Shown here: one piece after another, positions 10,129 to 51,046 of the stretch
Numbering within the stretch: position 1 is the stretch's first letter
How the letters are laid out: each line of letters begins with the position of its first letter
Source: Nanobdellota archaeon
GTDB taxonomy: Archaea; Nanobdellota; Nanobdellia; Woesearchaeales; GW2011-AR4
Direction of reading: 5' to 3'
DNA length: 64,000 nt
Assembly: GCA_038046385.1 (NCBI GenBank)
Contig: JBBSWH010000005.1
Location: 68,669 to 132,668 of the forward strand
The notes under the pieces: model-generated
The model's input: only the letters and a program-made list of their open reading frames with translations
Database searches by the model: none
What the model was told of the DNA's origin: nothing
Position numbers and translations under genes: made by a program

Positions 10129-10189
10129 AAGAGAACCTAACATTAATCCAAATAACATTTATAAATGGACTAGATGTACTTACCAGTAT

Positions 10190-10326
10190 GCCGAGGTCGC
10201 ATAGCCTGGTATTGCGGTGATTTCTGAAAAGAAACCGTATGATTGCTAGGCTTACGCTTTTTGGAGTAAGTGTTATAAAAATCCACTGTCCGAAAGGATC
10301 CGGGGGTTCAAATCCTCCCCTCGGCG
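10190..10326 (+). tRNA. tRNA-Ser(GCT) with two introns (29/30: 10220-10240; 37/38: 10249-10280)
   Basis: Acceptor GCCGAGG/CCTCGGC; spliced anticodon arm GTGGA-TTGCTAA-TCCAC; long variable arm; clean bulge-helix-bulge (BHB) at intron 1. Confidence 0.9.
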
Positions 10327-10340
10327 TTTATTTTAATAAA

Positions 10341-13032: not shown

Positions 13033-13890
13033 ATGATGACAGATAGTATAGGAAAAAATGTCAACCTCATAGGATGGATGGACAATTTTTATAGTACTGC
13101 TCCCTGTGAAGTCAGACTGGAAGGGCTTGAGAGCAGGATAATAAAAGCGTCAAATCCAAGCGGGCTGCTTGATTTGTTTAACCCTAATGCAGAAAGGATT
13201 GCGACACTGGGAGAAATAGCCACTGCAAGAGTAATTGCACTTGATTATTTATTTGAAATGGTTCCTAATTTAAGCGATATGTTTGCAATAAGTCATATCT
13301 GCAAACTCGATAGTGTGATTGACATTGACCAAGCAATGCTTGGAAGAATCCTGAAAGCATTTGTAAGATATCCTGAAATATTCGGAATATGGCAGGAAAG
13401 ATTGACTGCATCAACGCATATGGTAAGGGGGATTGATGACAATCAAGATAAAATTTTCTTTGCCGATGGAAATAAATTTGATAGAACTATTGACTACAAA
13501 AAAGCATTGGAAGGAGAATTATCAGATGGTGGAATACGCTATGGCGATGAAACTCTAAGTAATATGGCTGATAAGTCTTACTCCTCTTTATCACTTGCGT
13601 CTTATTTGGATGCAAAAGGCGGAAAATTCAATGGCTCAGAATTATTTAATCATCCAATATTCAAGGCAGCTTTGAATGATGATGCGCTTAGAAGCCAGTA
13701 TGTATTGGCACTGCAGTTGCTTGATTTTGTAAGCATTCATGATGCAGGAAGATATGCACTTTGGCGTCCTGGTGGAATGAAACCAGGATTTGGGAGGCAG
13801 ATATCTCTTGGATATAAAGGCGAGACATTCTATCCGCCGAATAATGACACAGTAGGACATGCTGCACTAGTATTACCAATAAAATCCTGA
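13033..13890 (+). CDS. hypothetical protein
   Basis: 285 aa ORF divergent from the Lrp gene; no recognisable motif. Confidence 0.75.
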   Translation: MMTDSIGKNVNLIGWMDNFYSTAPCEVRLEGLESRIIKASNPSGLLDLFNPNAERIATLGEIATARVIALDYLFEMVPNLSDMFAISHICKLDSVIDIDQAMLGRILKAFVRYPEIFGIWQERLTASTHMVRGIDDNQDKIFFADGNKFDRTIDYKKALEGELSDGGIRYGDETLSNMADKSYSSLSLASYLDAKGGKFNGSELFNHPIFKAALNDDALRSQYVLALQLLDFVSIHDAGRYALWRPGGMKPGFGRQISLGYKGETFYPPNNDTVGHAALVLPIKS

Positions 13891-14002
13891 ATTTAATTTT
13901 TATTCAGCAACCTTTATATGAAGAAAATCAAAGATTTTCTAATATAAAAGTTCGAACTGAGTTCGATACTTTTATAAAACGACTTCTTATACTAAATGCT
14001 AT

Positions 14003-14177
14003 AGCGGGGTAGGGCAGCCAGGAGTGCCCGATGAGGTTGCTTATGAATAAGAAGCAGCCGCGGAAGGCTCATAAGCACATCGAAATGCCTTAGACACCCA
14101 TACCAGCCTCTAAAGCTGGGGTTAAAGGTCGGAAGTTCAAAAACCATTAATTTGGTCTGGAAGTCTTCCCCCCGCTA
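14003..14177 (+). tRNA. initiator tRNA-Met(CAT) with four introns (14034-14065, 14074-14095, 14102-14125, 14142-14163)
   Basis: Spliced: AGCGGGG TA GGGC AGCCAGGAGT GCCC G ATGGG CTCATAA CCCAT AGGTC GGAAG TTCAAAT CTTCC CCCCGCT A; A1-U72 pair and three G-C pairs in the anticodon stem mark an initiator. Confidence 0.9.
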
Positions 14178-14222
14178 CTTTTCTTCACAAAGCTTTTATA
14201 ACAATATCGTTCTACAGCTTTT

Positions 14223-14897
14223 ATGATAATCTGCGGTATTGATGAAGCTGGTCGCGGTCCATTAATCGGCCCTATGGTGATGGCCGGCGTTCTGATAGAT
14301 GAAAAAGACGAGGCTAAATTCAAGGCTATCGGTGTAAAAGATTCTAAACTGCTAACCCCTTTCCAAAGAAAAGACCTATTTGACAAAATAAAATCCATTT
14401 CTAAAAAATACAAGATAATAATTGTGCAGCCTGATGAAATAGATGATGCTGTTTTTGGAAAAGGTGGATTAAACCTAAACTGGCTTGAAGCAAACACTTC
14501 TGTAAAAATACTAAATGAACTAAATCCTGAAAAGGCAATAGTTGATGCTCCGAGCCCGAACATAAAAAAATACACAGAATACATAAGAGAAAAGCTTGAC
14601 AACAAAAAGGTGAAGCTTGTTTTGGAACATAAGGCGGATGTTAATTATCCTGTTGTCGGCGCAGCTTCGATTCTTGCAAAAGTCACAAGGGACAATGAAA
14701 TCGAGAAAATAAAAAAGCAGATTGGAATTGACTTTGGAAGCGGGTACATGTCTGATCCAAAAACGTCTGAGTTCTTGAAAAAACACCACAATAAATTTCC
14801 CGAGATTTTCAGGAAGAGCTGGGCGCCCTATCAGAAGATTGCAGACAAAAAGATGCAGAAAAATTTATCTGATTTCTCCAAATTCATTAAAGAGTAA
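14223..14897 (+). CDS. rnhB: ribonuclease HII
   Basis: GIDEAGRGP, VKDSK, HKAD, AASILAKVTRD, GSGYMSDP. Confidence 0.96.
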   Translation: MIICGIDEAGRGPLIGPMVMAGVLIDEKDEAKFKAIGVKDSKLLTPFQRKDLFDKIKSISKKYKIIIVQPDEIDDAVFGKGGLNLNWLEANTSVKILNELNPEKAIVDAPSPNIKKYTEYIREKLDNKKVKLVLEHKADVNYPVVGAASILAKVTRDNEIEKIKKQIGIDFGSGYMSDPKTSEFLKKHHNKFPEIFRKSWAPYQKIADKKMQKNLSDFSKFIKE

Positions 14898-21312: not shown

Positions 21313-22023
21313 ATGATACAGAAAACGAAAGAAGAGTATTTGAAAGAACATAAGAATTGGGGCAGTATTAAACTTATCAATTTTCCCGAAAAGAATGAAA
21401 GATTGGCAGAGCTTGTCGGCATAATTCTTGGTGATGGTAACCTACATGTTTATACAAAAGGTAGTAATGTGGGAACTTATTCTTTAAGAATAGCTGGAAA
21501 TTACATAAAAGATCATGAATATCTTACAAATTATGTGGCTAGTTTGTGCAAAGACTTGTTTATGGTTAAGCCTAGGACATACAAACAGCCAAATGTAAAT
21601 TGCATTTATCTTATAATTGATGGTAGGCTAATTATAGATTTTTTAATTGAGATTGGATTAAAAAGCGGCAACAAAATAAAAAGTCAAGTTACAATACCCG
21701 ATTGGATTATGGAAAATAATGAATATCTTAAATCATGCATAAGGGGATTGATAGATACCGATGGCTGCGTTTATGAAATGCTGCCTCATTGGCCAGGCTT
21801 GTTCCAGATTAATTTTGAGAACAGAAACATAACTTTGTTGAGAGATACAAGAGAGGCTTTGATAAAGCTAGGCTATCACCCTTCTAAAATTTGTGGCAAT
21901 AGAACGCAATTCGGAACTAAAATTTATATCTCTCGAAAGGAAGAAATCAAAAGATTTTATAAAGAGATTGGGTCTAGCAACGATAGGAATATAAAACAAT
22001 TCACTAAAGTGTTTAACTCATAG
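21313..22023 (+). CDS. free-standing two-motif LAGLIDADG homing endonuclease
   Basis: LAELVGIILGDG and CIRGLIDTDG; no intein splice residues; stop codon overlaps the first 2 nt of tRNA-Gln; alternative TTG start at 21304. Confidence 0.87.
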   Translation: MIQKTKEEYLKEHKNWGSIKLINFPEKNERLAELVGIILGDGNLHVYTKGSNVGTYSLRIAGNYIKDHEYLTNYVASLCKDLFMVKPRTYKQPNVNCIYLIIDGRLIIDFLIEIGLKSGNKIKSQVTIPDWIMENNEYLKSCIRGLIDTDGCVYEMLPHWPGLFQINFENRNITLLRDTREALIKLGYHPSKICGNRTQFGTKIYISRKEEIKRFYKEIGSSNDRNIKQFTKVFNS

Positions 22024-22112
22024 CCCCGTAGTCTAGCGGTCACTTGAATAAAGCTGCAGAAGGATTCGGCCCTTTGGAGGCTGAGGCGGCAGTTCGAATC
22101 TGCCCGGGGCTA
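22022..22112 (+). tRNA. tRNA-Gln(TTG) with an 18-nt D-loop intron (~22042-22059)
   Basis: Acceptor AGCCCCG/CGGGGCT; anticodon arm CGGCC-CTTTGGA-GGCTG; BHB with central helix GCGG/CTGC and TCA, AGA bulges. Confidence 0.9.
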
Positions 22113-22176
22113 TATTTTAATTTTCTCTTGATTATGGGCAATACTTAGATATACCTTACCAATATTTCTCTAAACT

Positions 22177-42598: not shown

Positions 42599-42949
42599 TT
42601 GCAGGGTTAGTACTTAGCTTCGGCGCATGAAAAGGCTCGAAAGGGCTTATTCTGCTGAGGAAAGTCCGCCCACCATAAAAGGCCACTCGCACAAGCGAGT
42701 TTTGGAGACAGAAGGCAACCACTCAGAAACGAGACCGCTGCATCTAAGGGTGAAGCTCGCGAAGGCTCCTGTGAAGGAGCTGAGAACAGCTGACGTTTAT
42801 GCAGAATGGATGAAACGGTGAGTCCTGGCCGGTGCAAGTCCGCGAACAAGCAATTGTTCCAGTACGCTTAGTTTAATGCTAAGACAGGCTATCGCATTAT
42901 CAATAATGCACAAGGGCCTGACAAAAGGCGGCTTATTCTGGCCCTGCAA
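42599..42949 (+). ncRNA. rnpB: RNase P RNA
   Basis: GAGGAAAGTCCGCCC (5' P4), ACAAAAGGCGGCTTA (3' P4), P1 ttgcaggg/ccctgcaa; upstream TTTATATA box. Confidence 0.95.
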
Positions 42950-44603: not shown

Positions 44604-44675
44604 GGCTGCGGTAGTTTAGTGGCAGAATACGAGACTGTGGATCTTGTGGCGCGAGTTCGATTCTCGCCCGCGGCC
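44604..44675 (+). tRNA. tRNA-His(GTG) with encoded G-1
   Basis: G-GCTGCGG/CCGCGGC-C; anticodon arm CGAGA-CTGTGGA-TCTTG. Confidence 0.95.
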
Positions 44676-44692
44676 CTCTTTTTAAAATAACA

Positions 44693-50856: not shown

Positions 50857-50930
50857 TAGACAGGTTCAACTCCGTTTCGCGGGTAGCGCAAAAACATGGT
50901 TTTTGCTGACCCGCATTCGCTTACGCTCAT

Positions 50931-51016
50931 GCGGGGGTGGCAGAGCCTGGTCTAATGCGCTAGCTTGAGGGGCTAGTCCCTAAGTGGGTGCGCGTGTTCG
51001 AATCACGTCCCCCGCA
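50931..51016 (+). tRNA. tRNA-Leu(GAG)
   Basis: GCGGGGG/CCCCCGC-A; CTAGC-TTGAGGG-GCTAG; long variable arm; usual position between rpoD and rpl18e. Confidence 0.94.
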
Positions 51017-51046
51017 TTTAAAATCAAAATATAAAAAACAAAAAAA

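Follow-up and report, generated by a model that had tools for sequence, protein, structure and literature searches.

A probable initiator tRNA-Met gene with four bulge-helix-bulge introns in a small-genome woesearchaeote

Introduction

The presence of several bulge-helix-bulge (BHB) introns in one tRNA gene and their stepwise removal are known in principle. According to the available part of PMC8450103, the number of introns in an archaeal tRNA gene is "up to three", and introns located close to each other may need iterative removal. In the accessible text of PMC11291895, 92-95% of the tRNA genes in Asgard genomes are given as interrupted, and a 2026 Asgard preprint, again as far as its accessible part goes, reports up to five introns in a single tRNA gene (10.64898/2026.10.13.758758).

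Closer to the organism studied here are the DPANN archaea, in which splicing endonucleases (EndA) of the alpha4 type go along with more tRNA gene disruption, and incomplete sets of predicted tRNAs point to disrupted genes that escaped identification (passages in PMC5829648, PMC3239211). The alpha4 enzyme is treated as strict, and it is DPANN alpha4 EndAs with an inserted loop that accompany disruption (available sections of PMC5829648). One Woesearchaeota genome is part of the survey in PMC5829648/PMC3239211, and the sections of these papers available to us contain no intron count above three. Beyond this survey (PMC5829648, accessible in part), we found no literature description of multi-intron tRNAs in Woesearchaeota.

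Here, we analyse a locus in a window of 64,000 nucleotides (the whole stretch of DNA under study, to which all positions refer unless a contig or locus is named). The host belongs to the Woesearchaeota and is a DPANN archaeon. Its genome assembly comprises 1.28 Mb in 19 contigs with 38% G+C and is 85% complete.

Results

In-silico excision of four introns from positions 14003-14177 on the (+) strand leaves a 75-nt tRNA-Met(CAT), for which ARAGORN, run on the spliced sequence, returned a full cloverleaf. By stem-pair count, 21 of 21 cloverleaf stem pairs form in the spliced product. ARAGORN on the spliced sequence and a homology-free parser both placed the CAT anticodon in a 7-nt loop with T33. 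A1:U72 forms the end pair, and G29-G31:C39-C41 provide three consecutive G:C pairs in the anticodon stem. An A1:U72 pair together with three anticodon-stem G:C pairs marks the identity of archaeal and eukaryotic initiators, and these marks are common to all 47 orthologous loci. Judged by its sequence, the locus encodes an initiator-type tRNA-Met and is interrupted by four introns.

All parts of the gene lie on the (+) strand. Exon 1 (14003-14033, 31 nt) covers tRNA positions 1-29, i.e. the 5′ strand of the acceptor stem, the D arm and the start of the anticodon stem. It is identical to the corresponding part of an intron-less orthologue, L007 in congener G002 (match at C5:82670-82701 of the source genome G000, 100%). 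Intron 1 (14034-14065, 32 nt) interrupts the tRNA at 29/30 and is followed by exon 2 (14066-14073, 8 nt), which spans positions 30-37 and includes the anticodon CAT. Intron 2 (14074-14095, 22 nt) occupies the canonical site 37/38. Exon 3 (14096-14101) is a micro-exon of 6 nt covering positions 38-43. The anticodon stem takes its 3′ strand from this exon, and a parse without it yields 19 of 21 stem pairs, as opposed to 21 of 21 with it. Intron 3 (14102-14125, 24 nt) at site 43/44 separates it from exon 4 (14126-14141, 16 nt), in which positions 44-59 comprise the variable loop, the 5′ strand of the T stem and most of the T loop. Intron 4 (14142-14163, 22 nt) is located at 59/60, and exon 5 (14164-14177, 14 nt) adds positions 60-73 with the end of the T loop, the 3′ strands of the T and acceptor stems and the discriminator A. 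No CCA is encoded at the 3′ end of the gene. A TATA-box-like element (13970-13979, (+)) starting 32 nt before the mature 5′ end is a putative promoter, and a T-rich trailer (14178-14186, (+)), recognised by its composition, is likely an archaeal transcription stop.

The intron-less orthologue L007 fixes the intron boundaries independently of structure since it matches the exons. It is 75 nt long, shares 74 of the 75 exon bases and is scored as tRNA by Rfam (60.5 bits). Spliced alignment to L007 yielded exactly the four claimed introns. The homology-free parser, which lists BHB-like candidate introns and scores the cloverleaf of what remains, placed the same four-intron parse among three tied at the top score of 27/27. 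When the interior was shuffled with the acceptor ends kept, none of 60 sequences reached 27 in the same intron-removal search (maximum 25, mode 21); the four-intron cloverleaf is not a product of chance. The original prediction had named four introns of these lengths (32, 22, 24 and 22 nt) at these sites, and the complete cloverleaf, the intron-less congener and the parser all bear it out.

The splice junctions were examined in the standard BHB register, in which four exon bases immediately preceding the 5′ bulge are matched with four intron bases immediately preceding the 3′ bulge to give the central helix H; each bulge is 3 nt long and is cut after its second base (written below as a hyphen). 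Intron 4 has the canonical hBHBh′ motif. Its central helix TTCA/TGGA forms 4/4 pairs (one G-U), the bulges are AA-A and AG-T, the outer helix h of 5 bp is the T stem, and a single unpaired C offsets the inner helix of 4 bp. The motifs of introns 1 to 3 belong to the relaxed BHB class, with one mismatch each. Intron 1 combines H CCGA/GCGG (3/4 pairs) and bulges TG-A and AA-G with an outer helix of 2 bp and an inner helix h′ of 8 bp, and its helix borrows C24-C25 from the 3′ strand of the D stem. In intron 2, H is CTCA/TTAG (3/4 pairs) with bulges TA-A and AC-A and an inner helix of 3 bp with a one-base offset; its outer helix comprises 2 bp in the primary transcript and grows to 5 bp after removal of intron 1. 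Intron 3 is HBh′-like, with H ACCC/GGTT (3/4 pairs), bulges AT-A and AA-A, an outer helix of 0-1 bp and an inner helix of 5 bp. A flanking helix of at least 2 pairs, be it h or h′, is present at all four introns. The junctions had been described beforehand as BHB or relaxed, and the bulge triplets quoted for them coincide with the BHB positions of introns 1, 2 and 4.

The same kind of pairing was found throughout the family. Among 126 homology-defined introns from 45 distinct initiator loci (L033 and L019 being left out for their uncertain parses), H reaches at least 3/4 pairs in 119 (94%) and 4/4 in 61, figures that come from kin loci and do not represent independent trials; in the controls, at least 3/4 pairs were reached by 22% of shuffled introns and at 17% of slid cut sites. 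The inner hairpins at 29/30 are mostly 8-10 bp long in 27 loci of relatives and occur in three different sequences. The hairpin is kept through sequence change, for instance GGTTGCTT/AAGCAGCC in this gene as compared with GGCTGTTT/AAACAGCC in G017. Minimum free energy folds of the precursor and nine partly spliced forms reproduced the intron 4 BHB as well as the hairpins formed by introns 1 and 3. As a test of splicing order, this folding was rejected because it does not decide the order.

Ordered splicing had originally been derived from a central helix AACC/GGTT of intron 3. This argument falls, as it uses a shifted register with a 4-nt 5′ bulge. In the standard register, the helix is ACCC/GGTT, the ACCC lies wholly in exon 3, and 3/4 pairs form with or without intron 2. 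What is conserved among the relatives is a GGG as pairing partner of C39-C41 and not a complement to AACC, which fits the standard register. Stepwise removal itself is still likely on other grounds. The motifs of introns 1 and 2 share G14066, G14067 and C14068, those of introns 2 and 3 share C14095 to C14098, and those of introns 1, 3 and 4 have no bases in common. Because the motif of intron 2 overlaps with its neighbours on both sides, the four introns are likely to be spliced stepwise.

A single EndA gene is present on contig C6. It encodes a protein of 200 aa with a single N and a single C domain (PF01974, 97.5 bits; PF02778, 56.9 bits; TIGR00324 equivalog above cut-off), and among solved structures the best matches are the alpha subunit of N. 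equitans, M. kandleri EndA and the alpha4 EndA of M. jannaschii. A phmmer search of 6190 stop-to-stop frames of at least 60 aa from the 85% complete genome found no second EndA paralogue below E = 0.29, and the NF007085 model for the beta subunit matched only the known EndA gene. Its single N and C domains differ from a three-unit (epsilon) or two-unit (alpha′) EndA. The Lys-rich insertion in the C-terminal domain (L3) appears to be absent from the stretch between the catalytic Tyr and His, where the protein has a 6-residue gap relative to 3IEY_A; the exact place of L3 was taken from a passage of PMC3239211 and the 3IEY_A alignment. Relative to M. jannaschii 1A79, the Tyr-to-His stretch has no gap, and the same spacing occurs in 9 of 9 aligned EndA sequences of the genus (the source and 8/8 congeners). 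These nine also have a Lys/Glu-rich N-terminal tail of approx. 30 residues in common. A match over the PF01974 cut-off was obtained in 33 of the 43 genomes of the genus; weaker second matches all had E > 0.03, and G043 alone has two matches over the cut-off. Judging from domain content and alignment, the enzyme looks like a plain alpha4 type.

The EndA gene (L041:1186-1788 (+)) is arranged head to head with, and slightly overlaps, an ORF of 369 aa (L041:216-1325 (-)) with a metallo-beta-lactamase His motif. We take this ORF to resemble RNase Z, a tRNA 3′-end nuclease. A gene for the RtcB ligase lies on contig C19 (536 bits). Its match (C19:24104-25448 (-)) falls into two pieces on different frames or segments (profile 1-25 and 26-426) and lies approx. 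0.8 kb from a candidate three-intron tRNA-Phe(GAA) (C19:26225-26395 (+)). The archaeal RNase P RNA is encoded in the window at 42633-42945 (Rfam, 121 bits).

Upstream of the tRNA gene, an ORF of 285 aa (13033-13890, (+)) has no Pfam family and falls into unnamed archaeal (Nanobdellota) clusters in the Atlas. A homologue is also located upstream of the initiator gene of G043. With this ORF lacking a Pfam family and belonging to unnamed clusters only, an association with a homing endonuclease has no support at the locus. An imperfect palindrome of approx. 40 nt (13909-13948) precedes the putative tRNA promoter. Three more copies are found in the genome (C5:58112-58148, C6:125771-125810 and C6:161824-161860), in each case with a variable hairpin and a TATA-like box downstream, and the palindrome also occurs in contigs of other organisms from the same metagenomes. 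Its possible roles include that of a regulatory site and that of a small mobile module. The only Rfam matches around the locus with E up to 10 were two weak ones to snoRNA-like RNAs upstream of the gene (15.8 and 15 bits compared with gathering scores of 41 and 40); reading them as a C/D-box RNA was rejected because the stretch belongs to the repeated palindrome. Four other tRNA candidates are found in the window (10189-10327, 22021-22113, 44605-44676 and 50930-51017), two of them with introns according to ARAGORN; for the first intron-bearing one, ARAGORN and the parser differ in isotype.

The genus is represented by genomes of 43 species, in which the initiator gene is complete in 28 and truncated at a contig end in 2; the other 13 yielded no such gene. 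Intron numbers among the complete genes range from 0 to 6. G002 has no intron, five genomes have one, four have two and six have three, the latter including G013 with an aberrant D loop. Four introns, as in the source genome, is the commonest count with eight genomes. Five introns occur in G004 (L003) and G008 (L020), and five-intron versions are also found in loci L046 and L051. The two six-intron genes (L036:344-567 in G023 and L037:359-580 in G020) are interrupted at 13/14, 29/30, 37/38, 43/44, 53/54 and 59/60, and after removal all 21 of 21 pairs and a consensus T loop are formed. RNase HII is encoded downstream of the initiator gene here and in relatives with 1 to 5 introns, and this shared neighbour indicates that these genes are alleles of one orthologous locus. 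Irrespective of intron number, 41 of 47 distinct initiator loci have a TATA-like word between -36 and -22, mostly starting at -32 as in this gene. Twenty-five loci with the 5′ exon and the 29/30 intron in common are labelled as Candidatus Woesearchaeota or Nanoarchaeia, mostly from groundwater, apart from a few whose "Methanosarcinales" label is evidently automatic.

Some loci of the genus deviate from this pattern. Unlike its interrupted orthologues, the sole intron-less copy (L007:1457-1531 in G002) is not followed by RNase HII, and it may be a relocated or retro-copied gene. The TATA box is positioned at -42 to -46 instead of -32 in four loci, namely L016, L046 and L051 with an intron at 7/8 and L013 without one at this site; the leaders of all four end with a conserved TCTGCC-type word. 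A CGAGGACTGGGAGTTAAAT-like trailer word directly follows the initiator gene in L004, L009, L031, L032, L033, L036, L049 and L055 but not in the source genome; another RNA gene may begin with it. In the initiator gene L033 of G013, the D-loop segment with G18-G19 is missing, which may reflect damage to this copy or an error in the assembly.

The original prediction that standard scanners miss the gene is true of the two that we used, ARAGORN and Rfam. ARAGORN did not report the unspliced locus with or without its intron mode. The Rfam tRNA model did not find it at gathering score, gave no tRNA match with E up to 10 in the 401 bases around the locus, and missed it in a whole-genome search with E up to 1. 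As to another initiator tRNA, whose presence would have cast doubt on the predicted role of this gene, no second initiator-type locus was found in the 85% complete assembly. A separate CAT tRNA on contig C11 has a different acceptor stem. In a rough census, approx. 31 credible tRNA loci were counted in the genome, mostly with one or two introns and two with three; the initiator is the only locus with four in this census. These counts are lower bounds, as a near-consensus T loop was required and parses with a long variable loop probably hide further introns. BLAST of the whole locus against the source genome gave only chance-level matches (E > 1) and no paralogues of the introns elsewhere. Among contigs from other sequencing runs, one (X4 record 7, possibly from the source sample) spans 13800-14400 with 0 differences and another (X3 record 1) has 1 difference, which lies outside the tRNA gene; no intron-less variant of the locus was seen among them.

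Discussion

The locus is best explained as a working initiator tRNA-Met gene of a small-genome woesearchaeote with four BHB introns and five exons, a reading to which we give a probability of roughly 0.88. The gene is real and very probably functional. Its anatomy, splice motifs and orthology and the presence of the enzymes are shown by the analysis; its transcription, the cleavage of its introns, the order of their removal and the oligomeric state of EndA are what we infer from the sequence. Several points weigh against this explanation, namely a mismatch in three of the four central helices, the D-stem bases borrowed by intron 1, and the offset inner helices of introns 2 and 4. Moreover, the EndA lacks every feature so far tied to the cleavage of relaxed motifs.

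A precursor of at least 175 nt would be transcribed from the conserved TATA promoter, containing five exons (31, 8, 6, 16 and 14 nt) and four hairpin introns. Each exon-intron junction would fold as a bulge-helix-bulge with two 3-nt bulges four base pairs apart, EndA would cut both bulges, and the RtcB ligase would join the exons. RNase P would trim the 5′ end, and CCA would be added afterwards. In the simplest order, introns 1, 3 and 4, whose motifs are compatible with one another, would leave first and the canonical 37/38 intron last, once it is flanked by the full 5-bp anticodon stem.

The introns might be spliced as proposed and yet be retained for a role of their own, such as blocking the integration of mobile elements or slowing maturation. 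We consider such a role unlikely. The presence of 0 to 6 introns at one locus within the genus, which suggests ongoing turnover, can be cited for it, but the introns are short, their sequence varies between species except where pairing needs it, and the congener with L007 does without any.

A decaying or silent copy with insertions, accompanied by a working initiator tRNA in the unassembled 15% of the genome, is improbable. The assembly is indeed only 85% complete, and the copy of G013 (L033) without the G18-G19 part of its D loop indicates that damaged copies may occur. However, the exons of the present gene are intact with 21/21 pairs and 74/75 bases equal to the intron-less orthologue, the insertions lie exactly in the BHB register, the promoter is conserved, and no second locus turned up in the assembly. 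In addition, 27 of the 28 complete genes of the genus form 21/21 or, in G017, 20/21 pairs after intron removal; the 28th, that of G013, reaches 21/21 only with its aberrant D loop.

Still less probable is a real gene with another parse, e.g. with three introns (14074-14125 leaving as one) or with shifted boundaries. The three-intron parse was produced under one scoring scheme of the spliced aligner, and ARAGORN still calls its product a tRNA-Met, yet this product has 19/21 stem pairs against 21/21 for the four-intron version, and exon 3 is directly joined to exon 4 or exon 2 in relatives. For introns 2 and 3, sliding the boundaries by 1 nt leaves the product unchanged, but the slid boundaries permit 2/4 and 0/4 central pairs instead of 3/4. 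As ARAGORN accepted the wrong three-intron parse as well, its call alone is weak, and it was dropped as judge of the parse in favour of stem-pair counts.

An assembly artefact, e.g. a chimera of reads from several related populations, is a marginal explanation: although the source is a metagenome-assembled genome and its samples also contain related populations with other initiator alleles (loose ends at 14030/14033), the identical four-intron gene runs end to end through contigs of two other runs, one of them maybe the source sample, and orthologues of other species (G043, L056) have the same four intron positions.

With a working four-intron gene as the preferred reading, the more interesting questions are the series of 0 to 6 introns at one locus and the plain-looking EndA that serves it. 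A wider proposal, possible but on the doubtful side, is that the genus holds the most fragmented tRNA genes yet, with one initiator locus of 0 to 6 BHB introns served by a single small alpha-type EndA that has none of the known broad-range subunits or loops and carries a Lys/Glu-rich N-terminal tail. If true, intron proliferation would be possible without the known specialised forms of EndA, and the genus would be a natural series for timing the gain and loss of tRNA introns, in which stepwise splicing through micro-exons of 6 and 8 nt is testable. A plain, strict-looking EndA would call into question the accepted link between EndA architecture and the spread of introns. As the locus varies by single introns between close species, the group offers a direct route to studying the turnover of tRNA introns. 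Finally, routine annotation overlooks an essential gene across an entire group of uncultured archaea, and genome completeness and tRNA repertoires of DPANN archaea are under-read as a consequence.

How unusual are four introns in one gene? The original suggestion that this number may be unreported does not hold: the accessible part of the Asgard preprint gives five (10.64898/2026.10.13.758758), and congeners of the present organism carry five and six. Four introns per gene are above the peer-reviewed maximum and not unprecedented. The six predicted introns of G020 and G023 exceed the five of the 2026 preprint.

The gene had originally been compared with those of the Thermoproteales. This comparison holds as a functional analogy only. 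In the available part of PMC8450103, Pyrobaculum, Thermofilum and Caldivirga have several short BHB introns at non-canonical sites, of two close introns one is out before the motif of the next forms, and scanners struggle with the genes, all of which resembles the situation here. In lineage, the comparison fails, since the Thermoproteales belong to another phylum, the Thermoproteota, whereas the host of this gene is a DPANN archaeon. They are described with a maximum of three introns per gene (same part of PMC8450103) compared with four here and five and six in congeners. Their EndA is an (alpha-beta)2 enzyme with a specific loop, in contrast to the single loop-less alpha-type gene found here.

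Asgard archaea are similar in that most tRNA genes are interrupted, many of them by multiple introns with BHB motifs, and that many are missed by the annotator; there too, as far as the accessible sources go, comparison with compact relatives reveals the introns. The host studied here is of an unrelated lineage, and its genome is approx. 1 to 2 Mb smaller. Asgard EndAs carry an L1 loop, according to available sections of PMC5829648.

Outside the archaea, the red alga Cyanidioschyzon merolae has nuclear tRNA genes in which multiple BHB introns occupy the D arm, site 37/38 and the T loop, as described in the accessible text of PMC3728597. In this eukaryote, with three introns at most, RT-PCR revealed that the outer introns leave before the 37/38 intron (available part of PMC3728597). 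The order proposed here would be the same and parallels that of the three-intron tRNA of C. merolae (PMC3728597).

The nearest parallel is found within the DPANN archaea themselves. There, disruption has been tied to L3, the kind of Lys-rich insertion found in the alpha subunit of N. equitans, and the EndA described here is without this insertion. Hidden disrupted tRNA genes have been expected in DPANN genomes (passages in PMC5829648, PMC3239211), and the initiator locus presented here is such a gene.
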